The notes beneath the pieces were generated by a model, which saw nothing but the letters and a program-made list of their open reading frames with translations, had not been told where the DNA came from and ran no database searches. Below are positions 2,001 through 18,494 of a stretch of 32,000 nt of DNA, piece after piece (within the stretch, counting starts at the first letter, position 1; every line of letters begins with the position of its first letter). Source of the DNA: Candidatus Nitrosotenuis sp. (GTDB lineage: Archaea; Thermoproteota; Nitrososphaeria; Nitrososphaerales; Nitrosopumilaceae); the NCBI GenBank assembly GCA_049276655.1, contig JBASWV010000010.1, positions 61,757 through 93,756 of the forward strand, read 5' to 3'. A program made the translations under genes and the position numbers.

Positions 2001-2127
2001 AAAATGCATAGCCCCCCGCTTGGGCACAAAAATCTGACACTTTTTAGTCATAACTAAAACAGGATTTGGATCGAGATGATCAATAATTACATAAGGTTAT
2101 CATCATACCGTTAATTCTATAAGACAA

Positions 2128-2496: not shown

Positions 2497-2500
2497 ACCT

Positions 2501-2751: not shown

Positions 2752-2868
2752 ATGGAACAAGACGTATTCCGATGCGAATGCCCTCCTGGCGCTCCAACAT
2801 ATGAGGATGAGGAAGGTATGCTCATCTGTGTTTCATGTGGTGGTTGGGTTAACCCTCTGGCCACTTAG
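2752..2868 (+). CDS. Stand-alone TFIIB-type zinc-ribbon micro-ORF (38 aa)
   Basis: Hand translation: MEQDVFRCECPPGAPTYEDEEGMLICVSCGGWVNPLAT. The pattern CxC...E-E-G-M-L-I-C-x-x-C-G-x-x-V mirrors the ribbon of the downstream TFB (CISC...SGEIVCSNCGLV). It ends 18 nt before the TFB ATG. Confidence 0.4.
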   Translation: MEQDVFRCECPPGAPTYEDEEGMLICVSCGGWVNPLAT

Positions 2869-2886
2869 AGTAACATCTATTGCGAT

Positions 2887-3798
2887 ATGGTTTATGATGT
2901 ATTGAAAAAAAGTACGCGTGACTCTTACTGCATTTCATGTTCACCCGTTACGGATCTTGATAGTGGCGAAATCGTGTGTAGCAATTGTGGGCTGGTGATG
3001 GTTGAAAGACTAGAAAGTCAATATAGAGAATGGCGGCCATTTGATGATGATTATAGAAGATACAGAGTGGGCCAGCCCAGCTCATCAGCATTTTCCAACG
3101 CGAGACTTTTTACCAATATTGGAAATGAAAATTGGGACTTTTCAGGAAAACCATTCTCATTTATCACAAAAGGAACTATGAATCGCTTAAGACTGTTTGA
3201 TACTAGAAGCAAAAATCATACCTCATCGGATAGGAATTTTTATAAAATGTATTACGAATTTGAAAAACTAAAACATAAGCTCACTATTTCCGATTCTGTT
3301 ATAGAAAATGCTGTATATCTATTTAGGAAAGCCACAAATAAGAAGTTGACTCGTGGCCGAAATATGTTGCTGATAGCTGCTTCGTGTTTGTATGCTGCAT
3401 GCAGAGAAAGTGAGACACCAAGAACACTTTATGATATAGCCGACGCCATAAATGTAAAGAAAACTGATGTCAGTGCATACCTAAGATTGCTAATACATGA
3501 ATTAGAGTTGACATTGCCAACAGTGAATTTGTATCAATGCATTGTACGAGTTGCAAACAATATGGGTATTTCTGAAAAAATAAAACGCCACGCCCTTGAA
3601 ATAATCCAAAAAGCAGAGCAAATCAATATGACTGCGGGTAAAGAACCAATGGGGCTTGCCGCTGCCGCAATTTATTTGGCGGGAATGAATATGGGTGAGA
3701 ATTATTCCCAAAAAACATTATGTGAAATTTCAAAAATTACTAGTGTAACGCTCAGAAATAGAAGCAGGGAATTAAGACAAAAGATTCTGTTTAACTAA
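2887..3798 (+). CDS. tfb: Transcription initiation factor IIB (TFB) paralog
   Basis: 303 aa. It has an N-terminal Cx2C-x13-Cx2C zinc ribbon followed by two cyclin-like repeats (LIAASCLYAACRE... and MGLAAAAIYLAGM...), which is the typical TFB/TFIIB architecture. Confidence 0.93.
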   Translation: MVYDVLKKSTRDSYCISCSPVTDLDSGEIVCSNCGLVMVERLESQYREWRPFDDDYRRYRVGQPSSSAFSNARLFTNIGNENWDFSGKPFSFITKGTMNRLRLFDTRSKNHTSSDRNFYKMYYEFEKLKHKLTISDSVIENAVYLFRKATNKKLTRGRNMLLIAASCLYAACRESETPRTLYDIADAINVKKTDVSAYLRLLIHELELTLPTVNLYQCIVRVANNMGISEKIKRHALEIIQKAEQINMTAGKEPMGLAAAAIYLAGMNMGENYSQKTLCEISKITSVTLRNRSRELRQKILFN

Positions 3799-4156
3799 AT
3801 TTCTGAAGAAGATCTAGGACTTTGGAGATAATTAGGTTGTGATTCGCAGTAACCTCTGTAGAAATTAACAGTAATTCAGTTTGATTTAATGGGATCGTTA
3901 TACGTTTTATCTTTTCATATTCTGCCATAGAGTATTTTCCATGACCAATGAATGTTGCAAGCGTACTGCGATTTTCCCATCTCATAATGGTGTGTATTGC
4001 AGATTTTGTTAGCTCTTCTGGAGGTAATAATGGCTCTAAACCGTCACGCATTCCACCACATAATTTATGCCCGCTTTTATGGTAGATTGCGACGTATCTT
4101 ATTTTAGGATCAATTTCGAAAATCGTATCACATAGGTTTTCAGAATCAGAGATCAT
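3791..4156 (-). CDS. Small Roadblock/LC7-like protein, paralog B
   Basis: 121 aa with the same architecture as 2128-2496 (IRYVAIYHKSGHKL..., identical AEYEKIKRITIPL). It overlaps the TFB 3' end convergently by 8 nt. Confidence 0.7.
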   Translation of the reverse strand: MISDSENLCDTIFEIDPKIRYVAIYHKSGHKLCGGMRDGLEPLLPPEELTKSAIHTIMRWENRSTLATFIGHGKYSMAEYEKIKRITIPLNQTELLLISTEVTANHNLIISKVLDLLQKFS

Positions 4157-4452
4157 AGCACAAGTTTTTCTTTATTGATTACTTTACCTGTAATGTTGTC
4201 GATTTCCACGACCATGCTCAACGTATCAGTTTCTACAATGACAGTTGTTGTGTTGGTCTCATTCATTCTTACTATCGATGTAACTTCATAATGCTTGAGT
4301 TCGTCAATCTCTAATGCGTCTCTGACGATTCGTAGTGCATCATTATCATTTTGTACTTTTGTTTGCATTTTGGTTGATCTTAAAATCAGATATGCTATTA
4401 TGGTCACCATTATGTAATATCCAACCCAAACCGGAATTTCCGTAAAGTCCAT
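4153..4452 (-). CDS. Membrane-anchored small protein, PepSY-like ectodomain (tentative)
   Basis: 99 aa with an N-terminal TM helix (IPVWVGYYIMVTIIAYLIL). The C-terminal part ends in VEIDNITGKVI, reminiscent of PepSY. ATGA start/stop overlap with 3791-4156 suggests translational coupling. Confidence 0.55.
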   Translation of the reverse strand: MDFTEIPVWVGYYIMVTIIAYLILRSTKMQTKVQNDNDALRIVRDALEIDELKHYEVTSIVRMNETNTTTVIVETDTLSMVVEIDNITGKVINKEKLVL

Positions 4453-4589
4453 CGTTGTTTATACGTTGTAAACTTATTTAAGAGAAACAATTATTTTTAT
4501 TAAAATTCGTTTAATAATAACAAAATTACTTTATAAAAAATCAAACATACGACAAATTTACTTAATATATGATTAACGCGTAAGTAACT

Positions 4590-4826
4590 GTGATGCAAGA
4601 ATTTGATCTGTTAAATGAAAAGAAAGTAGAAAAATTGGCAAAAAACCAATCGGATGTAGAACGGATTTTACCAAGATTGACGACGTATGAGATTTCCTTA
4701 CTCATAGAGAAGATAGACACAATGATAATTTCTTCACATTCAAAGAAAACAACTCTGGATTTGATAATCTTGAAAGATATTGTATTGAGGGAAAGACACC
4801 TGAGAAAAACATTGGAGGTAAGCTAA
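4590..4826 (+). CDS. Hypothetical protein
   Basis: 78-aa ORF with GTG at 4590 and ATG at 4593. It is the first gene after an AT-rich divergent promoter region and sits 6 nt upstream of the next ORF. No recognisable motif. Confidence 0.45.
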   Translation: MMQEFDLLNEKKVEKLAKNQSDVERILPRLTTYEISLLIEKIDTMIISSHSKKTTLDLIILKDIVLRERHLRKTLEVS

Positions 4827-4832
4827 AATCTA

Positions 4833-5081
4833 ATGAAAACCGGTTCTTGTTTATTTTGTCTAAATCGTAAACGCATCAGTGCTGATAAAAAGCAATGGCT
4901 TATTCACTTATCATCGCATAGAGAGAACATGATAAAATATCTGGTTGAGCAGTACCCGAGTTGTGTGTTATGCGTAAACTCTGAACCATTTGTAAACAAA
5001 TTGAATTTTGAAAGACACGTTCGTTGGGGGCACGATAAAAGGGCCGTGATCGAATGGACCTTTCAGAACATGATAAAATAG
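4833..5081 (+). CDS. Small protein with two C2H2-like zinc-finger motifs
   Basis: 82 aa. The motifs are CLFC-x15-H-x3-H and CVLC-x14-H-x4-H. Its 3' end overlaps the endonuclease V reading frame. Confidence 0.55.
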   Translation: MKTGSCLFCLNRKRISADKKQWLIHLSSHRENMIKYLVEQYPSCVLCVNSEPFVNKLNFERHVRWGHDKRAVIEWTFQNMIK

Positions 5082-5740
5082 GCAATGATCCATTGGAAAT
5101 AACGCATTTTGCTCTTAAACCTGAACAAATGACTCAAGATCCTATGATGCTGCAAGAAAAACTTGCAAGTAGAATAATTACGACGGATTCCTTTGGTTCT
5201 ATAAAAAAAGTATGTGGCGTGGATGTTTCTTACAAAGATAATGTAGCGTCGACTTGCGCAGTAATAGTTGATAGAAAAACTCTACAAATGATAGAATCTG
5301 TAAACGCCAAAACTAAAGTAAACCAGCCGTACCAGCCAGGTCTTTTATTCTTAAGAGAAGCAGAACCAGCATTTTCTGCATTACACTTGTTACAAAATGA
5401 TTATGACCTTTTATTAGTGGATGGCAATGGTCAGCTTCATCCTAGAAAGTGTGGTCTTGCATGCCATCTTGGATTATCGCTAGACAAACCAACCATAGGC
5501 GTGGCCAAAAGCCTTCTCTGTGGTAAAATAAAGAATAACCGCGTCATACTCGATAGCAAAATAATGGGGGCAGTCATAAAAAACAGGAAAAATGTCTTTG
5601 TCAGCGTTGGCCACAAAATCGGTCTCCGAAGCGCAACAAAAATTGTGCAAGAATTAATAAAAAAAGATCAGTGGTTGCCAGAACCATTGCGGCTGGCAGA
5701 CCATTATTCAAAAACTTGGAAAAACAAGAATGTGGTGTGA
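5054..5740 (+). CDS. nfi: Endonuclease V (deoxyinosine 3' endonuclease)
   Basis: Carries the conserved blocks CGVDVSY, PYQPGLLFLREAEP, LLLVDGNGQLHPRKCGLACHLGL and PTIGVAKSLL. The start is uncertain: ATG at 5054 or ATG at 5129 (MTQDPMM...). Confidence 0.88.
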   Translation: MDLSEHDKIGNDPLEITHFALKPEQMTQDPMMLQEKLASRIITTDSFGSIKKVCGVDVSYKDNVASTCAVIVDRKTLQMIESVNAKTKVNQPYQPGLLFLREAEPAFSALHLLQNDYDLLLVDGNGQLHPRKCGLACHLGLSLDKPTIGVAKSLLCGKIKNNRVILDSKIMGAVIKNRKNVFVSVGHKIGLRSATKIVQELIKKDQWLPEPLRLADHYSKTWKNKNVV

Positions 5741-5799
5741 TAGTTAAAACATCTGATCTGTTGGAAAACGTTTAAGGTCATAACTGAAAATATGTCTCT

Positions 5800-6240
5800 G
5801 TGAACGTTTTCATTATTGCAATTATTGGAATTGCAATAACATCTGTGATTGTTTTTGGTATTTTCATGATCGGTGAAAACCCAACAATACAATTTCCAAA
5901 AGAACATTATGAAATCAAGATTATCGGACTAAAAGACAGCTATTTTGTTGGAGAGCCATATTCATTTTCTTATGTATTGTCGGGGTTTGGAACTCCATGC
6001 GGAAGTAAAATGATCACATTTCCAATAAACAAGACCCATGCTGGTATGGAAGGCTCAAGTGCTTCTTGTCTAAAATCATTCCCAACAAACTTTGTTTTGG
6101 ACGTCAAGGAAACTTATGGTACGACATATGGGCATATTGCATTGCAAGAGACTGGAAACTATACCGTAAGGATTCAATTTGAAAAAGGAGATAACGGCCC
6201 AACGGTCACGGAAAAAACTTTCATGGTAATTAATCCATGA
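5800..6240 (+). CDS. Membrane-anchored hypothetical protein
   Basis: 146 aa with a GTG start. It has an N-terminal TM helix (VFIIAIIGIAITSVIVFGIFMIG) followed by a beta-rich ectodomain. No known motif. Confidence 0.55.
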   Translation: MNVFIIAIIGIAITSVIVFGIFMIGENPTIQFPKEHYEIKIIGLKDSYFVGEPYSFSYVLSGFGTPCGSKMITFPINKTHAGMEGSSASCLKSFPTNFVLDVKETYGTTYGHIALQETGNYTVRIQFEKGDNGPTVTEKTFMVINP

Positions 6241-6277
6241 CACTTAGGTCATCAAAACCACTTTAGTGTAAAATTTC

Positions 6278-7009
6278 TCAAAGGCTACGGACGCCGTTCA
6301 TGTTGATGTTCTGTTTTACCATCCTCAATTTAATATCGGAAAATCCTTCTTCTTCGAACCATTCCCGAACTTCATGGGCTGAAAAACTCCAATTATATTT
6401 TGGATTAAATGCGTCAAACCAACCATGAATATCGCCACCAAGTTCCACAGCTTTTTTCCTACATAACTCGACTTTCTCATCAAATGATAGTTTTTCCCAA
6501 AAAGCATGTTTTTCCACACATGAGGGCCCTCTAAATCCATCATAAAATCGATCATTTTCTTTATTGTAAACCATAATGTGTAACATTCCGCCTTTTTTCA
6601 CCTGTGATGCCACTTTTGAAAATCCCATTCTAGTATCTTCTAGATGATGCAAAACTCCCCACGATAACACAAAATCGTATTCTTGTTTGGCTTCTAAATT
6701 CATTATATCATATACATATGCGTTAAGATTAACGGTTCTACATCTGTTAATTGCTTCCTCACTTATGTCAAAACTATCTACTCTGGCAGCCTTTAGCTGC
6801 TGCATGGCATACGTCCATCTACCTGGTCCACACCCGGCATCTAAGCAAATCCTACCTTTGATAAAAGAATCTCTTTCATACCATTTTTTAATGCCGGTTA
6901 ACTCCAGAAATTCTTCGACTCGTTTTCTATTGTATTCGTATTGGTTTTTGTTATAGGTCAGGTATTCCTTACCCATTACATTTTTCCATTGCTCATCAAA
7001 ATCGGCCAA
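6278..7009 (-). CDS. Class I SAM-dependent methyltransferase
   Basis: 243 aa. SAM-binding motif I is LDAGCGPGRW, the acidic post-I motif is VDSFDIS, and the downstream block is FVLSWGVLHHL. Confidence 0.85.
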   Translation of the reverse strand: MADFDEQWKNVMGKEYLTYNKNQYEYNRKRVEEFLELTGIKKWYERDSFIKGRICLDAGCGPGRWTYAMQQLKAARVDSFDISEEAINRCRTVNLNAYVYDIMNLEAKQEYDFVLSWGVLHHLEDTRMGFSKVASQVKKGGMLHIMVYNKENDRFYDGFRGPSCVEKHAFWEKLSFDEKVELCRKKAVELGGDIHGWFDAFNPKYNWSFSAHEVREWFEEEGFSDIKLRMVKQNINMNGVRSL

Positions 7010-7179
7010 TGATTGGTCGGTACTATGCCTTCTATAAATTACTTAATCATCACAAAATTCCAAATATCGAGCTTCGATGGTATGTACTCTAACCTACTTT
7101 TTTGGTTAAACCATCTGCAAAAATTTGGAAAACGAGTATACTCTACACTAACTGCTTGTCATGAGTCTCTGTTCACGCC

Positions 7180-7290
7180 CTATGGTGTGAACAGTGAGAC
7201 CGCAAAGCCTACTAGAAAGCCAATCACCGCTGCAGCCATGACAAACATTGCTATGGTGTCTGTCTTTCTGCGCCTTAACTGTATGCTCAT
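7180..7290 (-). CDS. Possible tail-anchored micro-protein (36 aa)
   Basis: Hand translation: MSIQLRRRKTDTIAMFVMAAAVIGFLVGFAVSLFTP, a basic N-terminus followed by one TM helix. Support comes only from the ORF and its hydrophobicity pattern. Confidence 0.25.
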   Translation of the reverse strand: MSIQLRRRKTDTIAMFVMAAAVIGFLVGFAVSLFTP

Positions 7291-7383
7291 ACTACAAGTA
7301 TGTTTTTTAAAAATATAATATTGATTTTCGTAATTCTAAAAATATTTTTAATACCAAATTTTGGCTAGTATACAAATTTTTAA

Positions 7384-7560
7384 TCAGCTATTTATTGCGA
7401 TTTCATTATGTTCAGTCGAGTCAGCAGGAATGCTTTGCACATTCTTAGTGTTCTCTCTATCAATCGATGCCTGCTGGACACTTTCACCAACAACAAAACC
7501 AAAAATTCCAAAGCCACCAAGTACTAAAATCCCAATTAACAAATAGATAATCTTTTTCAT
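7384..7560 (-). CDS. Small membrane-anchored or secreted protein
   Basis: The internal ATG at 7560 gives MKKIIYLLIGILVLGGFGIFGFVVG..., a signal or anchor-like N-terminus. The longer ORF extending to 7608 adds an implausible leader. Confidence 0.5.
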   Translation of the reverse strand: MKKIIYLLIGILVLGGFGIFGFVVGESVQQASIDRENTKNVQSIPADSTEHNEIAINS

Positions 7561-7705
7561 CGATCTGCCTGATGCGTACTGATATTTAATGCCTAACAAT
7601 ATTCTCAAAGATTAATCCAATCGTTATCTGACAGAGGCGCAATCCGATACAAAACCGCCATTTTCACTCGGAAAAAATAATATCGTCACAATAACAAATC
7701 AAACA

Positions 7706-8125
7706 ATGTCCCAAAAGGTCTGGCTCGGCAGAATCTACCTGCGAGAAGAAGGCGGCTACGAGATAATCCTCAGAGCGTTGCACCACTACAAAAAAAGGCT
7801 CAAAAACATAGGGCGATCCCCCGAGCTAAAAGATGCGCCAATGTTTGCACAGCTAGTCCAGCACGAGGCAGGCAAAACGGGGCCGCTAATCGATCCCATA
7901 ATAAACAAAATAAAGGCAGGCCTGCAAAACCCCGAATCGCTAGAATCACTCCGGGCAGACATTCCTATCTTTGAAAAAGCCCTAAACTGCTACCAGTCAG
8001 ACATTCAAAAATCCCAGGCGAGTCAGGGCTCTTTTTATTCCGATCTCATATCTGACAAGAACGTAGCGGCATCAGATCTTGCAAAAATCAAAGACGCGCT
8101 AGGAAAAATAAACCAGTTCTCGTAA
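7706..8125 (+). CDS. Hypothetical protein
   Basis: 139-aa ORF at the higher GC level of the flanking core sequence. It is predicted to be helical, with no recognisable motif. Confidence 0.6.
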   Translation: MSQKVWLGRIYLREEGGYEIILRALHHYKKRLKNIGRSPELKDAPMFAQLVQHEAGKTGPLIDPIINKIKAGLQNPESLESLRADIPIFEKALNCYQSDIQKSQASQGSFYSDLISDKNVAASDLAKIKDALGKINQFS

Positions 8126-8141
8126 AATCAAACACTAAATT

Positions 8142-8624
8142 ATGCTTGTCCTTGTGCGAATCCAGATGAAAAAATCAAACATCTACGCTCCGGGAAACAG
8201 GCGCAAAATCAACAAAAACTGGTTCACAAACGCAGTCCACATGAAGGAGATCTCGTCCACCATAAAATCAAAAGAGCAGAACATCTACCATGTTTATTTT
8301 GACAAAGGCGCAAAGACAAAACTCCATTCACACAACGGAAATCAAATCCTGATCATAACAAAAGGAAAAGGCAGTCTCGAGACATTCAAAAAACTCGGAC
8401 GTGACAAATCGACCTTTGGGATAAAAAGAACAAAGACGATCCAGCTAAGAAATGGCGATATCGCATACATCCCAAAAAATACACTGCACACCCATGGTTC
8501 TGCCAATCCAAGGCAGACGTTTTCACACATTGCAATAAACATTCTTCCAAGGAAAAACACCGAGTACAAGACCGTCTGGTACGAGTCCGATTTTAAGACC
8601 AAGACATCCGGAATCATAAGGTGA
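8142..8624 (+). CDS. Cupin-domain protein
   Basis: Cupin motif 1-like H-S-H-x-G-x-Q-I-L-I-I-x-x-G-x-G and motif 2-like G-D-I-A-Y-I-P-x-N-x-x-H-x-H-G. An alternative start is the ATG at 8166. Confidence 0.75.
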   Translation: MLVLVRIQMKKSNIYAPGNRRKINKNWFTNAVHMKEISSTIKSKEQNIYHVYFDKGAKTKLHSHNGNQILIITKGKGSLETFKKLGRDKSTFGIKRTKTIQLRNGDIAYIPKNTLHTHGSANPRQTFSHIAINILPRKNTEYKTVWYESDFKTKTSGIIR

Positions 8625-8660: not shown

Positions 8661-9071
8661 TTGAAGGCACTCGGGCTTTTTCTGTGCGCATTACTCGCGT
8701 TCACAATACTGGTAGATGTAACTTGGGCAGAGCCAAAAACCGGCCAACAAAAGACAAAGCACCAAGTCAAAAAGGACATAAAGGAAATTAAAAGCCCCGG
8801 CGAGGACAGGTCGGTAAAAATAACCTCGATAAAAAAATCAAGGACACTTTCCATCGTACATATAGTGGGACTCGAAGTCTGCGCCGGAAGAGAAAAGCTC
8901 TACTCCCCTGAGCTGGACCTAAAGTCAGACAGAGAATCTATAACCGTCAAGGTCTCGGGATTAATAATGCCAAAGATGTGCAAGAGCGCCGAGTTTTTCA
9001 TACGTGCAGGCGATCCGGATACAATCACGGCAAGTTTTTCAAAGCCCATCTACTATGTCCAAAGACAATGA
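8661..9071 (+). CDS. Secreted hypothetical protein
   Basis: TTG start and a signal-peptide-like N-terminus (KALGLFLCALLAFTILVDVTWA). ATGA overlap with the downstream nuclease gene. Confidence 0.5.
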   Translation: MKALGLFLCALLAFTILVDVTWAEPKTGQQKTKHQVKKDIKEIKSPGEDRSVKITSIKKSRTLSIVHIVGLEVCAGREKLYSPELDLKSDRESITVKVSGLIMPKMCKSAEFFIRAGDPDTITASFSKPIYYVQRQ

Positions 9072-9682
9072 AACTTGCAGCAATCTTGTTAGTATTGGTT
9101 CTGGCGCTTCCGCTTTTTGGTGTGGCCTCTGCGCATATTGACGGCTGCCACAGCAGGCACAGCTGTCCCTCTGATACTGGAAGCTACCAGTGCGGCGACA
9201 AGGGATATTGTGCAGAATGTTCCGACAACAACTACTGCAAGGCGCAAAAGCCGCTATCAAAAATCCAGATTGGCGCAGTCAAGGCCATGCCAAAAAAACA
9301 AACTGCAGAAACGCCTGGCTGTATCGGAAAGACGCTCTGCATAACCGGCAAGGTAAAAAGCATAATTGATGGCGACACACTAAAAATAGACACCTACAAG
9401 GTACGGCTCTCACTTGTAAACACCCCAGAAGCAGGGCAAAATGGATATGCGCAGGCGAAAAGCTTCACAAAACGCCTCTGTCCAGTAGGATCTGCCGTAA
9501 CAGTAGACCAGGACGACAAGCAGCCATTTGATAGATTCAAAAGGCTGGTGGGCAAAGTCTACTGCGCTGACAAACTGCTAAACTATGAATTGCTCTCAAA
9601 AAATCACGCCGTCATCTTACAAAAATACTGCAAGACAAGCGAGTTTTCCTCAGAATTCTGGGCGGCAAAATTCGGCTGCTGA
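9068..9682 (+). CDS. Secreted staphylococcal-nuclease-like (SNase/thermonuclease) protein with a Cys/His-rich N-terminal module
   Basis: The start was moved to the ATG at 9068 (MKLAAILLVLVLALPLFGVASA signal peptide). The SNase-like core is GKVKSIIDGDTLKIDTYKVRLSLVNTPE ... RLVGKVY. It is preceded by HIDGCHSRHSCPSDTGSYQCGDKGYCAECSDNNYC. Confidence 0.8.
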   Translation: MKLAAILLVLVLALPLFGVASAHIDGCHSRHSCPSDTGSYQCGDKGYCAECSDNNYCKAQKPLSKIQIGAVKAMPKKQTAETPGCIGKTLCITGKVKSIIDGDTLKIDTYKVRLSLVNTPEAGQNGYAQAKSFTKRLCPVGSAVTVDQDDKQPFDRFKRLVGKVYCADKLLNYELLSKNHAVILQKYCKTSEFSSEFWAAKFGC

Positions 9683-9698
9683 TTTTCTGATCAGAAAA
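9683..9698. terminator. Perfect 16-nt palindrome immediately after the nuclease stop codon
   Basis: TTTTCTGATCAGAAAA at 9683-9698 directly follows the TGA. It could be a hairpin or terminator, or a binding site. Confidence 0.3.
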
Positions 9699-9791
9699 AC
9701 CCACAATTAACCAAAACTCGTTAACCCAATTCACTAATAATTTAATCTAAGAGCTTATCAACAAGGAACCATCAGCTGACTTGGAACAACA

Positions 9792-12700
9792 ATGAAACGT
9801 ATTGCCCTGTCGGCGTTTTTCATAGCTTTTATTTTAGCATCTGTAAACTATGCAAGCGCGGCAACCATATCTGATCCACTGTCTGGCGTCACTGCGACTG
9901 CGGTTTCGCCTACCCAGGTAAACGTTTTTTGGTCGGCACCGCAAAACGACGGGGGCTCGCCAATCATAAACTACAAAATTGAATACAAAGTAGGCAGCGG
10001 CGCTTACACGGTTTTGGTGCAAAGTACCACCAATACATTTTATTCACATACAGGCCTTACGACAGGACAGTCATACTCTTACAAGGTATATGCGGTAAAC
10101 TCTATTGGCACAAGCGCGGCCTCATCCGAAGTTACTGCAACGCCTACATCGTCATCTGCTGGAACAAATCCTGGCATCCCAACTAATGTGGCCGCATACG
10201 CGACATCGCCTACCCAGATAAGCCTCTACTGGTCCGCCCCTGCAAACAACGGCGGTTACCAAATAACCGGATACCGAATCGACTACAAGGTCGGCTCAGG
10301 GACATACTCTACTTTGGTATCAAACACGCAGAGCACGACTATCAGCTACACCCACACAGGCCTGACGACAAACCAGTTCTATTTCTACCGCGTATATGCA
10401 ATCACACAATTTGGAACAAGCGAGCCGTCCGCCGAAGCATATGCGCAACCGCAATCAACATCTTCTCTTACGGTTCCTGGCGCCCCGACAAACCTTTCTG
10501 CGACTGCGACATCGCCTACCCAAATTAATCTCTCTTGGACTGCGCCATCAAACAACGGCGGTTCGCCTATCACTGGATACAAAATAGAATCCAAGTCCGG
10601 GACAGGCTCTTACACTACAATAGTCTCAAACACCGGCACCACATCAACCACATACTCACACGCCGGCCTTGTCACCGGCACCACATACACGTACAAAGTC
10701 TCCGCAATATCTTCTGCCGGAACAGGGGCAGCATCAAACGAGGCCTCTGCAACGCCGACATCTTCATCATCGCTTACCGTGCCTGGCGCACCGACAGGTC
10801 TTGTCGCAACACAGGCCTCGTCCACTCAGATAAGTCTCTCTTGGACTGCGCCATCAAACAACGGCGGTTCGCCTATCACTGGATACAAAATAGAGTACAA
10901 AATAGGCTCCGGCTCTTACACTACAATAGTCTCAAACACCGGCACCACATCAACCACATACTCACACACAGGACTGACGGCAGGCCAGGTCTACACGTAC
11001 CGCGTATCCGCAATAAACGCAATTGGAACCGGCTCTGCGTCGCCTGAGGCCACACCCGGCTCGTCATCGTCATCCAGTCCTCCTGGCGCCCCGACAGGCC
11101 TTACTGCTACTGCCGCATCGCCAACGCAGGTAAATCTCTCCTGGACCGCACCCTCTTCTGGAGGAGTTCCAACCGGCTATAAAATCGAGGCAAAAAAGGG
11201 CACTGGCGCATATGAGATAGTGGTTGCCAACACGCAAAGCACTGCGACCTCGTTTGCTCACACTGGTCTGACTACCGGCACCACCTACTACTATAGGGTC
11301 TCTGCGATAAACTCTGCCGGAACAAGCTCGCCAAGTGAGGCCTCTGCCACACCAAAGGAGACTACAAACCCGACGCTTACTGCGACCGCTGTATCCCCCA
11401 CATCGATTATGCTTTCATGGGTTCCGCCGTCGCAGACATACAAACAGTCCATCACCGGCTACAAAATTGAAGAGAAAGTAGCCCAAGACACATTCCAGAC
11501 TATAGTCGACAACACAAACTCTGCCGGAACGTCACATACCATCACAGGCCTTACCACAGGCCAGGCCCACACATATGTCGTTTCTGCATATTTCAGCTTG
11601 GGTGCCAGTCCAAGATCCAATGAGGCCTCTGCCACACCACTGACTACGTCGACGCCGCCCGCATCACAGCCGGCAATGACTGCCCCTGGCGCCCCGACAG
11701 GCCTTACTGCTACTGCCGCATCGCCAACGCAGGTAACCCTCTCCTGGTCTGCGCCATCAAGCACCGGCGGCTCTGCCATAACTGGATATAAAATCGAGGC
11801 CAAAAAAGGCACAGGCCCATACGAAACAGTAACGTCGAGCACGCAAAACTCTACTACAAAATACTCGCACACAAACCTTACCACTGATATAACCTACACA
11901 TATCGGATCTATGCGATAAACTCCGTCGGAATAAGCCAAGCATCGTCAGAGGCCTCGTCAACTCCAAAACTGTCTACGTCTCCGCCACCATCAACTGTAT
12001 CTCTGCCTGGCTCGCCGGCTCTTTCGGCCAATTTGGTCTCGCCAACGCAGATAAACCTCTCCTGGTCTGCGCCATCTACTGGCGGCACTCCGACAAGCTA
12101 CAAAATAGAGTACAAGGTAGGCGCGGGTCAATACCTGACACTTGCAAAAAGCACAACTGGCACAACATACTCGCATACCGGCCTGCTGGAAAACACATAC
12201 TCTTACAGGGTTTACGCGATAAACTCTGCCGGCACAGGCGCTCCATCAAACGAGGTGTCTCTGAAAACCGTACAAGACCAGCCAGAGCCGACGCCAAAAC
12301 CAGACGAGTCAAAATGCGGCCCAGGAACCGTCCTTAACTCACAAGGGGTATGCGTTCTTGCAGAATCCGAGCCGGAGCCAGAACCTGAACCGGAGCCAGA
12401 ACCAGAGCCGGAGCCGGCACCTGTGCAGACTGGTCCAAAAAAGACACACATTCCGGGATTTCCAGATCCGAACAAAGATCCTCAATACTATATCAACAGA
12501 TACAACTCTGAATCGGAATATCGCGCATGGTTTGACAGAAACTTTCCAGACCAGACAATCTACGAGATAGTCGGAGTGGCAGAGCCAGAGCCGCAGAAAA
12601 TAACCTGTGGCGAGGGAACCCGACTTGAGGGAGGCATCTGCGTACTAGATGAAACAAAGCAGCAGTTCGGAGGCTGCCTTGTGGCAACTGCCGCTTTTGG

Positions 12701-13040
12701 AACAGAGCTTGCGCCGCAGGTGCAGCAGCTCAGAGAGTTACGACAAAACACTCTGCTTGGAACAAGTTCCGGTACTGCGTTTATGGAAATGTTCAACGGA
12801 GTGTACTATTCGTTTTCGCCAACAATTGCAGATTGGGAAAGACAGAGTCCGGCATTCAAACAGGCAGTGAGAGCAACCATCACGCCGATGCTTTACACGC
12901 TTTCAATTCTTAATTATGTAGATATCGACTCTGAGCAGGAAATGCTCGGATATGGAATTGGAATAATCCTACTCAACTCGGGAATCTATCTTGGCATTCC
13001 GGCGGTATCTGTTTTGCTTATCCGAAAAGCCCTGAGATGA
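9792..13040 (+). CDS. Large secreted surface protein: signal peptide, 8 FN3 repeats, PE-rich linker, two Cys loops and a C-terminal Cys-initiated membrane-anchor module
   Basis: 1082 aa. The signal peptide is MKRIALSAFFIAFILASVNYASA. There are eight units of about 100 aa with the FN3 signature (SPTQ[IV]xLSW..P..(N)GGSPITGYKIEYK......Y.HTGLT.G..Y.YRV.A.N..G.). These are followed by (EP)7 and a C-terminal GGCLVATAAFGTELAPQVQ... module with a terminal TM helix. Confidence 0.9.
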   Translation: MKRIALSAFFIAFILASVNYASAATISDPLSGVTATAVSPTQVNVFWSAPQNDGGSPIINYKIEYKVGSGAYTVLVQSTTNTFYSHTGLTTGQSYSYKVYAVNSIGTSAASSEVTATPTSSSAGTNPGIPTNVAAYATSPTQISLYWSAPANNGGYQITGYRIDYKVGSGTYSTLVSNTQSTTISYTHTGLTTNQFYFYRVYAITQFGTSEPSAEAYAQPQSTSSLTVPGAPTNLSATATSPTQINLSWTAPSNNGGSPITGYKIESKSGTGSYTTIVSNTGTTSTTYSHAGLVTGTTYTYKVSAISSAGTGAASNEASATPTSSSSLTVPGAPTGLVATQASSTQISLSWTAPSNNGGSPITGYKIEYKIGSGSYTTIVSNTGTTSTTYSHTGLTAGQVYTYRVSAINAIGTGSASPEATPGSSSSSSPPGAPTGLTATAASPTQVNLSWTAPSSGGVPTGYKIEAKKGTGAYEIVVANTQSTATSFAHTGLTTGTTYYYRVSAINSAGTSSPSEASATPKETTNPTLTATAVSPTSIMLSWVPPSQTYKQSITGYKIEEKVAQDTFQTIVDNTNSAGTSHTITGLTTGQAHTYVVSAYFSLGASPRSNEASATPLTTSTPPASQPAMTAPGAPTGLTATAASPTQVTLSWSAPSSTGGSAITGYKIEAKKGTGPYETVTSSTQNSTTKYSHTNLTTDITYTYRIYAINSVGISQASSEASSTPKLSTSPPPSTVSLPGSPALSANLVSPTQINLSWSAPSTGGTPTSYKIEYKVGAGQYLTLAKSTTGTTYSHTGLLENTYSYRVYAINSAGTGAPSNEVSLKTVQDQPEPTPKPDESKCGPGTVLNSQGVCVLAESEPEPEPEPEPEPEPEPAPVQTGPKKTHIPGFPDPNKDPQYYINRYNSESEYRAWFDRNFPDQTIYEIVGVAEPEPQKITCGEGTRLEGGICVLDETKQQFGGCLVATAAFGTELAPQVQQLRELRQNTLLGTSSGTAFMEMFNGVYYSFSPTIADWERQSPAFKQAVRATITPMLYTLSILNYVDIDSEQEMLGYGIGIILLNSGIYLGIPAVSVLLIRKALR
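9861..12270 (+). repeat. Tandem array of 8 FN3-encoding units of about 300 bp, with homogenised tracts
   Basis: Exact nucleotide identities were read off the sequence. 10529-10588 equals 10835-10894 (60 nt) and 10605-10661 equals 10911-10967 (57 nt), both at a 306-nt offset. 11082-11133 equals 11685-11736 (52 nt) at a 603-nt offset. Confidence 0.85.
12369..12410 (+). repeat. (Glu-Pro)7 dipeptide repeat / GAR-CCN hexanucleotide microsatellite
   Basis: gagccggagccagaacctgaaccggagccagaaccagagccg encodes EPEPEPEPEPEPEP inside the FN3 protein. Confidence 0.9.
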
Positions 13041-13066
13041 TTTTTCCGTTTTGGAACCAAAAACAT

Positions 13067-13092
13067 CCTGCAAATGCAGGCATTGTTTTTTT
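13067..13092 (+). terminator. Hairpin plus T7 tract downstream of the FN3 gene
   Basis: CCTGC-AAAT-GCAGG hairpin at 13067-13080, followed by the T7 run at 13086-13092, about 27 nt after the stop codon. Oligo-T tracts are the usual archaeal termination signal. Confidence 0.4.
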
Positions 13093-13202
13093 ACCATGAC
13101 AGTTTAGAACCAGTGTGCTGCTGGCGCTAACGATTTTTGCCCTATTGCTCGCCTGTCCTTTCAAGTGTCGAGGGTTCGCTAAACAGCTTTACTGCCACCA
13201 CC

Positions 13203-13423
13203 ATGGCATCCAAGGCGGAGATCGATAAGGCCTGGACCTCTTTCTGGACTGCAAAAAATACCTAAACGACGCAGAGCTTGCCCAGGGCGACGCCGACTTG
13301 TTGTTCTATAACTCCTCCTACCGGGAATCTTTTTACAAGTCATCGCTGGACACCGCAAAAAAGGCCGAAGTAAAACTATTCCAGGTAAAGGCATATCTAA
13401 AAAAGGTAAAGGCCCTGCAATGA
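13203..13423 (+). pseudogene. Small helical protein gene apparently disrupted by a 1-nt frameshift
   Basis: The frame from ATG 13203 (MASKAEIDKAWTSFWTAKNT*) stops at 13263. A second frame, open from 13229 to TGA 13421-13423, encodes ..LDLFLDCKKYLNDAELAQGDADLLFYNSSYRESFYKSSLDTAKKAEVKLFQVKAYLKKVKALQ without a start codon. Adding one G at the GG run 13234-13235 joins them as ...IDKAWDLFLDCKKY.... Confidence 0.3.
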
Positions 13424-13563
13424 AATGCTCTGAGCTCAAAAAACTGGTTGAGGAATACAAACTGCTCAAGCGCAGGCCACACCATCACAACGCGCAGCAG
13501 CGACTAGGTGAAATAGAACGCAGGTACTATCATGAAACTGGCGAGTCACTGGCAGAACCATGA
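13420..13563 (+). CDS. Hypothetical micro-protein (47 aa)
   Basis: Hand translation: MKCSELKKLVEEYKLLKRRPHHHNAQQRLGEIERRYYHETGESLAEP. ATGA overlap with the preceding disrupted frame. Confidence 0.35.
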   Translation: MKCSELKKLVEEYKLLKRRPHHHNAQQRLGEIERRYYHETGESLAEP

Positions 13564-13611
13564 TAAAAATAATGACAACTTTCAAAAACCCCGTAAAGTC
13601 CCAACCAATAC

Positions 13612-14385
13612 ATGCGCACGTTTCATATCATCGGGCTTGCAATAATTGGAGTCGTCATACTCTACTACATATTCGGCGCGTTTGTGCTCCAACAACAAGC
13701 AGTAAACAAACAGTCGGTGTACGTGCACCTGCAGCAGGAATGGAAAAGCTATCCAAGAAACATCGTGTACGACATTACAAATGTCTGGTCGCAAACCGAC
13801 TCTGAACAGCTCAACACACAGGCAAGGCTGCAGATGACAAAGGAGACAAACGTCGATGAGCTGAGGTACATGCACGGAAAATCCTACATCCTAATCCAGC
13901 ACGACAACACGAACTGCCGCGACGCCTGGGAACCGCACTATGCAAGGTTTGGAGCAGACGTCATACGCCATCAAATAGAATACCTAAGCGGCCTGCAAAA
14001 AAGCCCAGACCCAAACATAACTCTGTACACGCCAATCAAAAGCAAGCAGGACGAAAAAGAACACGAATCGCAAATCAAGACAGGATACTCGCAGTTCATC
14101 CCAATATGCACGGAAAAGGAGATAACGTCATTTGATTATGCGGTAAGGATAAACGACAATACCGTTGGATTTGACGTCTATTTCGTGCCGTCCACCCAAG
14201 AACAGGAAAACTTTGATCAGGGCAGCGAAAAGTTCCAATACTATGACGGCTGCTTTGGCAAAAACTATGCGAGCTTTTCTGGAACATGCAACGATGTGGC
14301 CAAGGGATCTGGACTGCTGGTGATAGTACCTGATAATCTCAGCGTCCCGCTTACGAAATTCGACGTATGGCTGTACGAAAAATAA
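13612..14385 (+). CDS. Membrane-anchored hypothetical protein
   Basis: 257 aa with an N-terminal TM helix (FHIIGLAIIGVVILYYIFGAFVL) and a large extracytoplasmic domain. No recognised motif. Confidence 0.6.
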   Translation: MRTFHIIGLAIIGVVILYYIFGAFVLQQQAVNKQSVYVHLQQEWKSYPRNIVYDITNVWSQTDSEQLNTQARLQMTKETNVDELRYMHGKSYILIQHDNTNCRDAWEPHYARFGADVIRHQIEYLSGLQKSPDPNITLYTPIKSKQDEKEHESQIKTGYSQFIPICTEKEITSFDYAVRINDNTVGFDVYFVPSTQEQENFDQGSEKFQYYDGCFGKNYASFSGTCNDVAKGSGLLVIVPDNLSVPLTKFDVWLYEK

Positions 14386-14426
14386 TCTGGAAAATCGTTT
14401 TAATTTAGGAAATGCATAGCTAATCC

Positions 14427-14888
14427 ATGAAAGCCACCTTTGGCGCAGGCTGTTTTTGGTGCGTAGAAGACATATTTCAAAAGACAAAAGGCGTCACAAA
14501 CACGACGGTCGGATACAGCGGAGGCTGGATGGAAAACCCAACATATAAGGACGTCTGCACAGACACCACGGGACATGCAGAGGTGGTCCAAGTAGAGTAC
14601 GATCCGAAAACGATATCGTACGAGGATCTTCTTGACGTTTTTTGGAGCTCACACGACCCGACCCAGCTCAACAGGCAGGGCCCAGACGTCGGGGTGCAGT
14701 ACCGCTCGGCAATATTTTACCACGACTCTGAGCAAGAAAAAACAGCAATAGGATCAAAGGAAAGGCTGGAAAAATCAGGCAAGTTTGCAAGACCGATAGT
14801 AACTGAAATCAAGCCTGCACAGGAATTCTACAAGGCAGAAGACTATCACCAACAATATTACGCCAAGTGCGGAATTGCGCGATACTGA
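14427..14888 (+). CDS. msrA: Peptide-methionine (S)-S-oxide reductase MsrA
   Basis: Catalytic GAGCFWC motif at the N-terminus, plus the blocks [16 protein letters not shown] and [14 protein letters not shown]. Confidence 0.93.
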
Positions 14889-15093
14889 GGATGATTTCTT
14901 CGTTTATCTTTTATACAAAATGTTGCAAATGAACCCAGTAGATGGGATTAATGCCGGACCTGGCGAGAGAAACTCGCCAAACCCATCTGCCAAATAAAAA
15001 AGAAAAAAGCTAAATGTCAAAATTTTTTGCATGCATTTCCATTTTTGGTTCCGATTCACAGGTTTATAATTAAAAAACACTAATCAATCTTAG

Positions 15094-15216
15094 TTGAAAT
15101 GCAGAAACTGTGGCAAGGCATTTGTAAACAGGGCTTCGAATTATTGCTCAACAGGCTGTGCACTGGAATACATGGACAGGCACAAGCAAGAAGACGATGA
15201 TTTATCAATCCGATGA
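15094..15216 (+). CDS. TRASH/FCS-like zinc-binding micro-protein (40 aa, TTG start)
   Basis: Hand translation: (M)KCRNCGKAFVNRASNYCSTGCALEYMDRHKQEDDDLSIR, with the pattern Cx2C-x11-Cx3C. The TTG follows an in-frame TAG directly, and the ORF ends 12 nt before the next gene. Confidence 0.4.
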   Translation: MKCRNCGKAFVNRASNYCSTGCALEYMDRHKQEDDDLSIR

Positions 15217-15228
15217 TTAATTCCAAAT

Positions 15229-15612
15229 ATGATGTATCTGGTCGCAGCCATTGCGTTGTTGATGGCAGGCTATGCAGTTGTAGACTCGCCAGTACAGGTA
15301 GGTAGTTCTCCGGCAAAATCCGTCGAGATTGGAAAACAGATACAGATAGCAGCCGACTTGCAAAACAACCAAGACTTTGAGCAGGACTTTGCATACATTG
15401 TTCAGATCCAAGACGAAAACGGCGTAGCCGTCTCGCTTGCGTGGCTGACAGGCGTTCTGGAGCCGGCACAATCGTTTTCGCCTGCAATATCATGGATTCC
15501 AACCAAGGCCGGAAAATACGAGGCCACAATATTTGTCTGGGAAAGCATCAACAACCCGTCAGCACTATCTCCGACACTTTTACTAAAAATCAACGTCGGG
15601 CAGTCTGCATAG
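15229..15612 (+). CDS. Secreted or membrane-anchored hypothetical protein
   Basis: 127 aa with a hydrophobic N-terminus (MMYLVAAIALLMAGYAV) and a beta-rich remainder. Confidence 0.55.
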   Translation: MMYLVAAIALLMAGYAVVDSPVQVGSSPAKSVEIGKQIQIAADLQNNQDFEQDFAYIVQIQDENGVAVSLAWLTGVLEPAQSFSPAISWIPTKAGKYEATIFVWESINNPSALSPTLLLKINVGQSA

Positions 15613-15674
15613 TTTTTGCCGGGTTCTTCGCTGCAATCCCTATAGTTATTAACATACAAGTGGTGGCTACAAAA

Positions 15675-15957
15675 ATGGCAGAGCATGGCGACTTTAACCA
15701 TCTAAGAGACCAAGGCTTTTGTTGAAAAACTAATTACGTCTGGCAACGGTGATCTGGGACGACTACAATTCATACTGGAATCACTAAGACAGGGAAAGGC
15801 CCTGTACCGTTCTGACCACCAATACCTGAGTGCAAAGCTAGGTGAAAAGATAGACTACACAAGCATAAGAAAAGAAAGAGATGTCAAAAATAAAAAAGCT
15901 AAAACAAAAAAGAAAATCCATAGCAAAGGGCCTGGCAATCGGAAAAAATCCAGATAA
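15675..15957 (+). pseudogene. Small basic-tailed protein gene apparently frameshifted at a T4 run
   Basis: ATG 15675 gives MAEHGDFNHLRDQGFC* with its stop at 15723. The +1 frame continues without any start codon as FVEKLITSGNGDLGRLQFILESLRQGKALYRSDHQYLSAKLGEKIDYTSIRKERDVKNKKAKTKKKIHSKGPGNRKKSR*, ending at 15957. Removing one T from 15717-15720 fuses them. Confidence 0.3.
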
Positions 15958-15982
15958 AAAAGATAACGAGTTAGCTGAAAAG

Positions 15983-16594
15983 CTAGAATATTCTAATTGA
16001 GATCTCCTCACCGTTCCCTAGCGGAAGCGTGGCCGTGAGGACATTTGGCTTTTCTGCAATATGGTTTGAGTAGCTGCGCATAATTTTTCGGTATTTTTGT
16101 GGGTATAGAGCATTGTCAGTAGCAATTATGCCGCCGACCTTTGTCATGGGCAGGACAAGATCAAAGTATTTTTTTGCGTTTTCCTTGTCGGCATCAACTA
16201 GGACAAAATCAAAGACCGGCCTTTTTGGCATCTTTTTTAGAATCTCAAGTATCTGCCCCCGCTTTATCCGGATTATTCCAGATATGCCTGCACGCTCAAA
16301 GTTCCTAGAAGCCCTTGCTATTTTTGCCGGGTTTTTTTCAAGCGTAATGATCCGCGGGTTCCTGTGGCACGTGGCCACCGCGTCCGCAAGCCAAAGCGTG
16401 GAATACCCAACCGAGGTACCAAGCTCAAGTACGCGTTTTGCCTTTATCCCGAGCAAAAGCGCATGAAAAAACTCGCCAGTGTCCTTAGTTATTGCAAGCA
16501 TCCTCTGGTCCGGCTCGACTCTGACTTTACGTGACTTTTCAAGCCTTGATCGTCTTTCAAGCGCTGCTAGCACCGATCTTATTTTGGGTTTCAT
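15983..16594 (-). CDS. Class I SAM-dependent O-methyltransferase (caffeoyl-CoA OMT / YrrM-like family)
   Basis: 203 aa. Carries VLELGTSVGYSTLWLA (motif I), the block FDFVLVDADKENAKKYFDL and GGIIATDN, typical of family-3 O-methyltransferases. Confidence 0.85.
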   Translation of the reverse strand: MKPKIRSVLAALERRSRLEKSRKVRVEPDQRMLAITKDTGEFFHALLLGIKAKRVLELGTSVGYSTLWLADAVATCHRNPRIITLEKNPAKIARASRNFERAGISGIIRIKRGQILEILKKMPKRPVFDFVLVDADKENAKKYFDLVLPMTKVGGIIATDNALYPQKYRKIMRSYSNHIAEKPNVLTATLPLGNGEEISIRIF

Positions 16595-17436: not shown

Positions 17437-17688
17437 ATGGATAGGTGCGATGTCAGGACGCGCGCATACAAGAACGGCAAGACCTTTGATCAGTGCGTGC
17501 AAATGGCAGAAGCGCTGAACCCGGAGTTCAAAAAAATCATTGCGCAAAACGGCAAGGTTCTGTGGTCTGAAATACTGCAAAAAGTAGATCACGACGAGCT
17601 GATCTACAAGCTTACCCTCAAGTATTTGAGGCGGGACGGATACGACATTGGTAACTGGCAGATACCCGAAGTAAAAAAATCCAGCTAG
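17437..17688 (+). CDS. Hypothetical protein
   Basis: 83-aa ORF with no recognised motif. It overlaps the next gene convergently by 4 nt. Confidence 0.5.
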   Translation: MDRCDVRTRAYKNGKTFDQCVQMAEALNPEFKKIIAQNGKVLWSEILQKVDHDELIYKLTLKYLRRDGYDIGNWQIPEVKKSS

Positions 17689-18494
17689 GGCTCGACTCTA
17701 CATCTCCAGCCGCTGCTTTTGATCTTTTTTGCCATGATTATTGGCGTAAAAACAAGCAATGGGATGGAAATTGCGATCAAAAGCGTCTGCAACTGAGTTA
17801 TTGCCAAAGTAAACGCGACAGCACCTGATGCGGAGACAATAAGCGTAAGAAATGTCCCGGCACATGTAGGGCACGCAATAAACAATCCTGTAGCTGCGGC
17901 GACGCTTCCCATGCCCGTCTTCCTCTTGAGGATCGTAAACGCGTTAGAAGCTATCGCGGCGTTTAGTCCAACCAAATACGAAACCGCAATTTGCAGGACC
18001 AGATTTATTGGAATTACCTGCAGGCCGACGTGTTCTGTTATGTAAAAGATGAACTTTGGGACGTATCCTATTTCGCCGCAGCAAGGAATAATCTGGGCGG
18101 ACGGAACCTGCACGTTATAATGATACGAAAAGGTGACATCTGGCTGGTAGACCAAAATCCCCGAAGTCAAGGCAAAAAAAACACCATATCCAATGCTAGT
18201 TGCGGCAAAAATTCTTCTTGACTTTTTGTTCCACGTTACCTGCGCAATCACTGAAAAATAATCGTCTTTTCCCGACTGAAACTTGTGCCTGTGGTACTGG
18301 TAAAGCCCGTACGATATTGCCCCTAGAGCAAGAACCATCATGACATAGAACGCGACTCCGAGCCTCTCTATGGGTGAAAGTGCAGACGGCGTAATTTCGG
18401 CATTGCCAAGTCTTGCGTATATCAGAAACAAAACCGCAATGCTCACAAACCCGACTGTAATAAGCGACTTGCCGTCACGTGATTGGACCATCAC
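17685..18494 (-). CDS. Polytopic membrane protein with conserved Cys pairs (CC and CPTC)
   Basis: 269 aa with at least 6 hydrophobic segments. It has IPCCGEIGY and an intramembrane FIACPTCAGTF motif. Function unknown. Confidence 0.7.
   Translation of the reverse strand: MMVQSRDGKSLITVGFVSIAVLFLIYARLGNAEITPSALSPIERLGVAFYVMMVLALGAISYGLYQYHRHKFQSGKDDYFSVIAQVTWNKKSRRIFAATSIGYGVFFALTSGILVYQPDVTFSYHYNVQVPSAQIIPCCGEIGYVPKFIFYITEHVGLQVIPINLVLQIAVSYLVGLNAAIASNAFTILKRKTGMGSVAAATGLFIACPTCAGTFLTLIVSASGAVAFTLAITQLQTLLIAISIPLLVFTPIIMAKKIKSSGWRCRVEP

Follow-up and report, generated by a model that had tools for sequence, protein, structure and literature searches.

The stretch analysed here, called the window below, comprises 32,000 nucleotides of Candidatus Nitrosotenuis sp. 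(contig JBASWV010000010.1, positions 61,757 to 93,756) and encodes two otherwise unrelated, putatively secreted proteins that end in the same module of about 123 residues. The first is a fibronectin type III (FN3) repeat protein of 1082 amino acids (aa), translated from the open reading frame (ORF) at 9792-13040 on the plus strand and matching Pfam fn3 in eight stretches (E 1.6e-104). It begins with a Sec-type signal peptide, MKRIALSAFFIAFILASVNYASA (9792-9860, +), in which an n-region, an h-region and an A-S-A site are recognizable, and the -3/-1 rule places the probable cleavage site at MKRIALSAFFIAFILASVNYASA|A, that is, ASA|A. The stalk or linker ahead of the module (12300-12668, +) contains two CGxGTxLxxGxCV hairpin motifs, a (PE)n run and the motif DPQYYINRYNSESEYRAWFDRNFPDQTIYEIVG (12477-12575, +), which follows the pattern DPxxYxxRYxxExxYxxWFxxNFPxxTIYxxxG. 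These pre-module motifs, which matched no assigned family, also stand ahead of the module in several homologs that carry other cargos (P0006, P0060, P0099, P0230, P0254 and L099). The second protein is a pyrroloquinoline quinone (PQQ)-type glucose/sorbosone dehydrogenase of 509 aa encoded on the minus strand at 29274-30803 (Pfam PF07995 GSDH, E 8.8e-32). By exact look-up it is identical to NCBI MFY9300917.1, annotated as 'PQQ-dependent sugar dehydrogenase' from a Candidatus Nitrosotenuis sp. metagenome-assembled genome (MAG). Its Sec-type signal peptide, MRIFLLIVAVSFGLVPAFA (30747-30803, -), is probably cleaved at MRIFLLIVAVSFGLVPAFA|E (AFA|E) by the same rule.

Copy 1 of the module (123 aa; 12669-13037, +) and copy 2 (124 aa; 29277-29648, -), both delimited by translation and BLASTP, share one architecture. 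Each opens with a core that we call the CFI-box after the family described below. In copy 1 it extends from an invariant Cys to ..TITPM (protein residues 962-1033; 12675-12890, +) and in copy 2 it spans protein residues 388-459 (29427-29642, -); the box motifs of the window copies are CLVATAAFG and CLIATATYG. The box ends 49-50 residues ahead of the stop codon in both proteins, and a helix and tail fill the remainder. In copy 1 the box is followed by the end of predicted helix 4 and a conserved acidic loop (LYTLSILNYVDIDSEQE; 12891-12941, +), which joins predicted helices 61-84 and 89-122 and in which D87, S88 and E89 (module numbering) are nearly invariant. A single hydrophobic segment of transmembrane strength covers module residues 92-118 (Kyte-Doolittle scale, 19-residue window, up to 2.0-2.3). 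It corresponds to the predicted transmembrane helix MLGYGIGIILLNSGIYLGIPAVSVLLI in copy 1 (12942-13022, +), which includes the family-invariant G96, N103, Y107 and P111, and to MLGYGIGVILLNVGIYFVIPSMLVI in copy 2 (29301-29375, -). GxG and GxxxG-like spacings occur in this helix (GYGIG, GIYLG). The translations end in a basic tail, RKALR in copy 1 (13023-13037, +) and KSRALFKR in copy 2 (29277-29300, -), which would lie on the cytoplasmic side. A six-frame tblastn and a motif scan found no third copy within the window.

The two tails align without gaps over 123 residues in BLASTP, with 78 of the 123 identical (63%), 77% positives and an E of 3e-59, so their similarity is far beyond chance. The cargo parts give only trivial BLASTP matches to each other (best E 0.01) and are unrelated. 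The initial annotation, made from the letters alone, had proposed such a shared tail on two unrelated proteins with Sec-type signal peptides, ending in a transmembrane helix and a basic tail; our analysis agrees with it on all of these points, and the translations match the tails it quoted. At the DNA level the two modules are 61% identical, with 81% identity at codon position 2 and 34% at position 3. Third codon positions are thus near saturation, and the same codon is used at only 26 of the 78 identical residues. The difference between positions 2 and 3 indicates old paralogs under purifying selection rather than a recent domain swap or gene conversion between two genes of this genome. Such a one-off event could be suspected from the presence of both copies in one window, and nothing beyond that speaks for it. 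Each copy is nearer to modules of other genomes than to its window neighbour, and the homologs, as given below, run into thousands. We therefore reject a one-off event, to which we leave next to no chance, and concerted evolution is also rejected since neither copy is closest to the other.

Both tails are ordinary members of the NCBIfam family NF041770 (CFI-box-CTERM), in the extended form typical of Nitrosopumilaceae. The hidden Markov model (HMM) of this family, 69 positions long and with a curated cutoff of 40 bits, scores 68.4 bits against the FN3 protein (model positions 1-68) and 64.8 bits against the dehydrogenase, and 73.0 and 68.2 bits against the modules alone. It aligns to module residues 3, which is the Cys, to 74. 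A domain family of the CFIATAAYG type, which the initial annotation had named while suggesting a comparison with NCBIfam, therefore exists and includes both copies. The module is not a new family, because homologs 70-73% identical from Nitrosotenuis, Nitrosarchaeum and other Nitrosopumilaceae already carry the name 'CFI-box-CTERM domain-containing protein' in NCBI and UniRef. The family is thus curated and applied automatically in NCBI annotation. Pfam has no model covering the module region. Our literature searches found no mention of the CFI-box or of the CFIATAAYGS motif, no publication behind NF041770 and no report of a Nitrosopumilus C-terminal membrane anchor with plastocyanin, in agreement with the earlier view that the biochemistry of the module is uncharacterized.

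The Nitrosopumilaceae form is widespread. A word-indexed protein search returned 2,258 homolog matches. Searching 1.84 billion representatives of clusters at 50% identity with a profile built from 76 modules gave 1,544 matches at E<=1e-30, 5,034 at E<=1e-10 and 19,462 at E<=1e-3; the first tier, about 1,500 clusters, is the level of the Nitrosopumilaceae form. At least 575 module sites were confirmed in species-representative genomes, and the best 80 of these all belong to ammonia-oxidising archaea. Nearly all of the 80 carry the label Nitrosopumilaceae (Nitrosotenuis, Nitrosarchaeum, Nitrosopumilus, Nitrosopelagicus), and individual genomes have several. These numbers refute the one-off swap. 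The module is C-terminal, within about 10 residues of the end, in nearly all of the top 150 representatives, whose lengths range from 154 to 806 residues, and it ends 0-13 residues ahead of the stop codon in the 80 loci that were fetched. A signal peptide is present wherever a gene of this form has an intact N-terminus, in the 80 loci as in the homolog set. Contigs were checked for three thaumarchaeal candidates without one (P0214, P0251 and P0191). P0251 is a truncated gene call whose open frame runs upstream to a signal peptide; P0214 is also a truncated call, in which an in-frame stop appears after 81 more residues and no signal peptide was seen; P0191 lies on a 988-bp contig with 2.4x coverage.

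The cargos in front of the module are diverse, and 46 Pfam families are represented among 98 full-length proteins; confinement of the module to the two proteins of the window, which the initial annotation had listed as a refuting outcome, is clearly not the case. They are of extracytoplasmic type, including plastocyanin/azurin cupredoxins, PsbP-like proteins, DUF4344 and M10 metallopeptidases, cyclophilin, TPR, NHL and pentapeptide repeats, CBM96, FN3 and GSDH domains, and low-complexity stalks precede the module in homologs. The module itself is tightly conserved. Pairwise identity among 89 modules, drawn from different genera and cargos, has a median of 68% and ranges from 52% to 100%. In the 76-module alignment 26 of the 123 positions are invariant, among them C3, A6, T7 and A8 in the box and G96, N103, Y107 and P111 in the helix, and the 98 full-length proteins display the same pattern of invariant columns. 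In Nitrosopumilaceae the module consists of a box of about 70 residues that begins with the Cys, an acidic loop, a transmembrane helix with specifically conserved Gly, Asn, Tyr and Pro, and a Lys/Arg tail; the last eight residues hold on average 3.2 Lys or Arg in 147 homologs. The Cys is present in 76 of 76 and 98 of 98 thaumarchaeal sequences. It is usually preceded directly by Gly or a poly-Gly run and followed by Phe or Leu.

The core box extends well beyond this form. In plasmid tblastn searches NF041770 members appeared in Acinetobacter lwoffii (5-kb plasmids), Haloquadratum walsbyi (plasmid PL47), Ralstonia (megaplasmids) and Paracoccus. The four plasmid proteins examined score 45-84 bits against the cutoff of 40, and none has a convincing signal peptide. 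The Acinetobacter protein lacks a hydrophobic helix at its C-terminus, the Haloquadratum protein combines an Mrr-like nuclease and a WYL domain with the CFI-box, and the Ralstonia protein, 337 residues long, has it internally, at 97-166. Searching with a profile built from the four yielded a sample of 120 short proteins of widely differing bacteria and archaea, among them Candidate Phyla Radiation (CPR) bacteria, Woesearchaeota and Geobacteraceae. All 120 have the Cys, often after a poly-Gly run, whereas a hydrophobic helix follows the box in only 25 of them. The residue directly ahead of the Cys varies across the wider family (Q, S, E, N, D, P, Y). Of the Gly-Gly-Cys described as invariant in the initial annotation, the Cys is confirmed as such; a Gly usually precedes it. 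Several members carry N-terminal zinc ribbons without a signal peptide, and HNH, Mrr plus WYL and TPR domains are also found in members without one. On viral contigs we found an HNH protein with the box and also secreted Ig-like proteins in which a helix and a basic tail follow the box; they held nothing related to the thaumarchaeal module, and wider-family matches numbered only 9. The net charge of the box differs as well, being acidic in Nitrosopumilaceae (median -6) and basic in the wider family (median +5). Restriction to exported proteins, which had been expected, thus applies to Nitrosopumilaceae genes with intact N-termini and does not apply to the wider family; the initial annotation had named the presence of the module on cytoplasmic proteins without signal peptides as an outcome that would refute its reading. 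Judged from its domain contexts, the core box is a general folded domain of exported and apparently cytoplasmic proteins and is not by itself an export-dependent sorting signal.

A further observation concerns the surroundings of stand-alone short CFI-box genes. Two of four inspected contigs, a tiny sample, had CRISPR-Cas alongside. In a Thaumarchaeota MAG (L086) the CFI-box gene lies at 8001-8252 and a type I cas cluster at 9559-16252, and in a Deltaproteobacteria MAG (L103) the gene at 1751-2170 has a CRISPR array directly upstream, at about 1-1400. PADLOC has no model for the CFI-box. With its Mrr plus WYL and HNH fusions, its 5-kb plasmids and this CRISPR adjacency, the class without signal peptides may be linked to mobile elements or defence islands.

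AlphaFold 2 (AF2), which had been proposed as a check on the module, gives a confident all-helical model. A run with thaumarchaeal sequences only reached a predicted local distance difference test (pLDDT) score of 67 and was superseded by a model from a mixed alignment of 109 sequences, in which 83 wider-family sequences were added to the thaumarchaeal ones. In this model (pLDDT 89.4, predicted template-modelling score 0.73) five helices occupy residues 4-10, 16-27, 33-59, 61-84 and 89-122, and there are no strands. The Cys is residue 3, residues 4-84 form the first four predicted helices with pLDDT of about 90, and the hydrophobic helix starts at residue 92. Since the roughly 88 residues ahead of that helix are confidently folded in the model, the module is better described as a domain than as a short motif. 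Foldseek of the model against the PDB gave no match (best E 8.5), and a PDB sequence search with the module gave only spurious matches to de novo TIM barrels. Across the mixed alignment C3, A6, T7, A8 and G11 are invariant.

This fold bears on the possibility that the module is a self-processing domain, in which an N-to-S acyl shift at the Gly-Cys would release the cargo or pass it to another nucleophile. The hedgehog GG|CF site and intein N-termini undergo such a shift, and the Gly or poly-Gly run before the invariant Cys, with Phe or Leu after it, bears a superficial likeness to the hedgehog site. However, the predicted fold is all-alpha and not the beta-rich Hint (hedgehog/intein) fold. None of the 76, 98 and 109-sequence alignments contains an invariant His, nor is there a Thr-x-x-His block in the conserved columns, and the variable residue ahead of the Cys in the wider family also speaks against it. 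We regard self-processing as very improbable.

The reading we favour, and to which we give somewhat better than an even chance, is that the mature protein keeps the module as a type-I membrane anchor, with a folded domain next to the membrane and the cargo outside. The N-terminal signal peptide, visible in both sequences, would route the protein through Sec. The C-terminal helix would then act as a stop-transfer segment, leaving the Lys/Arg tail in the cytoplasm and the box and cargo outside; a single transmembrane segment followed by a Lys/Arg tail fits the positive-inside rule. The module would be kept on the mature protein, with its acidic folded domain on the outer face of the membrane and the flexible Pro/Glu/Gly-rich stalk holding the cargo in the pseudo-periplasm. 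Retention is suggested because conservation covers the whole 123 residues, including specific helix residues, and because the layout of tripartite sorting signals is absent. Together with the near-saturated third codon positions, this conservation fits a lasting function better than that of a transient signal. Its tightness across unrelated cargos further suggests docking to something shared, and, more speculatively, helix and box may touch a common element, which could be another copy of the module, the surface of the membrane or a partner. Directly supported by the data are membership in the family, the architecture and terminal position of the module, the diversity of its cargos, their signal peptides, the predicted fold and purifying selection; the topology, the retention of the module over its cleavage and any docking are inferred from these.

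Several points weigh against such an anchor. The invariant Cys, usually preceded by Gly, would serve no purpose in a plain anchor, and the '-CTERM' in the NCBI name implies that its curators had a sorting signal in mind. Gly, Asn and Pro, helix-destabilizing residues conserved inside the transmembrane segment, would also suit the substrate of an intramembrane protease, and a rhomboid gene lies 2-3 kb from one CFI-box ortholog group. The core box also occurs on apparently cytoplasmic proteins, so that its basic function is not the anchoring of exported proteins as such.

Alternatively, the module could be a cleavable sorting signal. After export the invariant Cys would be modified by an enzyme, perhaps through lipidation, and the part distal to the Cys, or the helix only, would then be removed. 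Such a process would parallel proposals for MYXO-CTERM or CGP-CTERM with myxosortases and for GlyGly-CTERM with rhombosortase, and a precedent is given by the Cys-containing sorting signals that Haft described. The invariance of the Cys in thaumarchaea and in the wider family, the helix and basic tail at the extreme C-terminus, the many paralogous cargos per genome, the Gly, Asn and Pro inside the helix and the rhomboid gene, found at 11 loci, are all in line with it. However, tripartite sorting signals of the LPXTG, PEP-CTERM, PGF/PEFG-CTERM or MYXO-CTERM type place a short signature motif immediately ahead of the transmembrane segment. The module does share the closing helix and, at the very end of the protein, the cluster of Arg and Lys, but about 88 residues, confidently predicted to be folded, separate its Cys motif from the helix, and the tripartite layout is therefore lacking; the sorting logic of the PGF-CTERM and PEFG-CTERM kind, to which the initial annotation had likened it, fails for this reason. 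Conservation over all 123 residues is also unlike known signals, and the core box occurs on proteins with neither signal peptide nor transmembrane helix. The earlier remark that no processing enzyme is in view is correct for the window, among whose encoded proteins there is no sortase-like enzyme, rhomboid or CPBP protease. The rhomboid link, moreover, is a single syntenic neighbourhood and effectively one observation. We consider a cleavable signal unlikely, though by no means negligible.

The tight and cargo-independent conservation also raises the possibility that the module is primarily a device for docking or oligomerization, with anchoring secondary. Box and helix would then bind another copy, a membrane complex or the underside of the S-layer, and the Cys would form an intermolecular disulfide or a metal site. 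The GxG/GxxxG-like spacing of the helix would suit such contacts, and a self-association domain would make sense in the cytoplasmic fusion contexts of the core box. With exactly one Cys per module in 145 of 147 proteins, an internal disulfide is impossible. However, AF2 predicts a compact monomer with good confidence, there is no direct sign of a partner, and a disulfide cannot account for the invariant Cys of cytoplasmic-type members. Docking as the primary role therefore appears distinctly unlikely to us. Quite improbable is that the CFI-box is a new Cys-dependent domain for membrane attachment or processing, a folded unit of about 70 residues whose Gly-Cys would be lipidated, cross-linked or cleaved, by a partner or by itself, on either face of the membrane. 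If so, ammonia-oxidising archaea would use it as their principal means of positioning enzymes of the pseudo-periplasm, copper proteins included, at the membrane.

The discovery itself is modest, the domain being already curated. What is added here is the Nitrosopumilaceae-specific extension, the reversal of charge relative to the wider family, the mismatch with tripartite signals and the presence of the core box on cytoplasmic-type proteins. The family nevertheless deserves attention, as it spans about 19,000 clusters, has an absolutely conserved Cys and a confident predicted fold lacking a solved relative, and is without a published function. Many exported proteins of ammonia-oxidising archaea carry the module, among them cupredoxins, cyclophilins, peptidases and the PQQ dehydrogenase, and knowing whether it anchors, sorts or docks would help to map the pseudo-periplasmic proteome around ammonia oxidation.

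Clustering of neighbouring genes at the 80 loci revealed no universal neighbour of CFI-box genes. The recurrent neighbours are syntenic to two ortholog groups only and comprise PEFG-CTERM cupredoxins, CopCD-like proteins, a Znu-type ABC transporter, a rhomboid and housekeeping genes. The group with the rhomboid consists of CFI-box proteins of about 270 aa, and as its adjacency reflects a single conserved neighbourhood we take it as a weak lead only. This neighbourhood is found in many Nitrosopumilaceae (L012, L027, L040, L075, L076 and others; for example L076, 6052-6934) and contains PEFG-CTERM cupredoxins, a large CopC/CopD-like plus beta-propeller membrane protein, the Znu-type ABC transporter and the rhomboid protease. 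It looks like a metal-handling surface-protein cluster.

In the window, two small genes for proteins with signal peptides lie directly upstream of the FN3 gene, at 8978-9682 (+) and 8661-9071 (+). One product is Cys-rich with a staphylococcal-nuclease-like domain, and the other, of 136 aa, was assigned to no family. On the minus strand at 17685-18494 a 269-aa protein with about seven hydrophobic segments and the Cys motifs PCCGE and CPTCAG matches neither Pfam nor NCBIfam models; from these features it may be a membrane thiol or metal protein. The stretch 2001-8000, which encodes a TFIIB paralog, two DUF6659 proteins, endonuclease V and a methyltransferase, has a markedly lower G+C content (33-40%) than is found elsewhere in the window (45-54%) and may be an island that was acquired or evolves fast. 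At 15080-15725 several ORFs overlap, with both strands represented, and match no family, and Rfam (gathering thresholds) and tRNA scans of the window, this region included, found nothing. The window is archaeal and encodes TFIIB, aEF-2, PurP-type DUF1246/DUF1297 proteins, TatC and purine biosynthesis genes.

Compared with the rest of its own family, the module of the window keeps the Cys followed by [LF]-[IV]-A-T-A-[AT]-[FY]-G, and it shares with bacterial and haloarchaeal NF041770 members the columns LR..R(D/N), G..F, YY.(F)SP..A and ..P.. as well. What the Nitrosopumilaceae form adds to the NF041770 model is a 4-residue insert, the acidic loop, the helix conserved in sequence and the basic tail. 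In lipoproteins of the bacterial type the Cys belongs to a lipobox ([LVI][ASTVI][GAS]C) directly after the h-region of the N-terminal signal peptide. The Cys of the CFI-box instead lies 960 and 387 residues from the N-terminus in the two window proteins, after acidic, Pro-rich or Gly-rich linkers.

It has been reported that SlaB-like surface proteins are exported and held by a C-terminal helix (PMC11153153), and this S-layer paper mentions anchors of the SlaB type only. Such plain archaeal C-terminal anchors share with the module the topology and role that we propose for it. However, they are conserved in composition only, whereas the module is 52-100% identical across unrelated cargos and genera and has the invariant Cys-initiated domain.

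Among sorting signals, PEFG-CTERM and the PGF-CTERM and PEP-CTERM signals of archaeosortases and exosortases resemble the module in being C-terminal, in having a helix and basic residues and in occurring on many signal-peptide-bearing surface proteins of the same organisms. In contrast to the module, they take up 20-35 residues in all, do not form a folded domain and have a short motif that directly abuts the helix. They are unrelated to it in sequence, and nothing implicates an archaeosortase in its case. PEFG-CTERM, the recognized signal of thaumarchaea, is absent from the proteins of the window; proteins bearing it are encoded beside CFI-box proteins in 32 of 81 loci, which indicates that the two devices coexist and are distinct. 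In Cys-containing short sorting signals, of 20-40 residues, the Cys immediately precedes the helix and is modified before cleavage, and their partners are proteases of the CPBP family. The Cys of the CFI-box, unlike theirs, opens a separate folded domain whose core also occurs free of any helix, and neither the window nor the recurrent neighbours include a CPBP/Rce1-like protease. GlyGly-CTERM with its rhombosortase recalls the module by its glycine-rich motif and by the rhomboid-family gene near one ortholog group. However, GlyGly-CTERM is a short tripartite signal, and the CFI-box module is a folded domain with a rhomboid in one conserved neighbourhood only.

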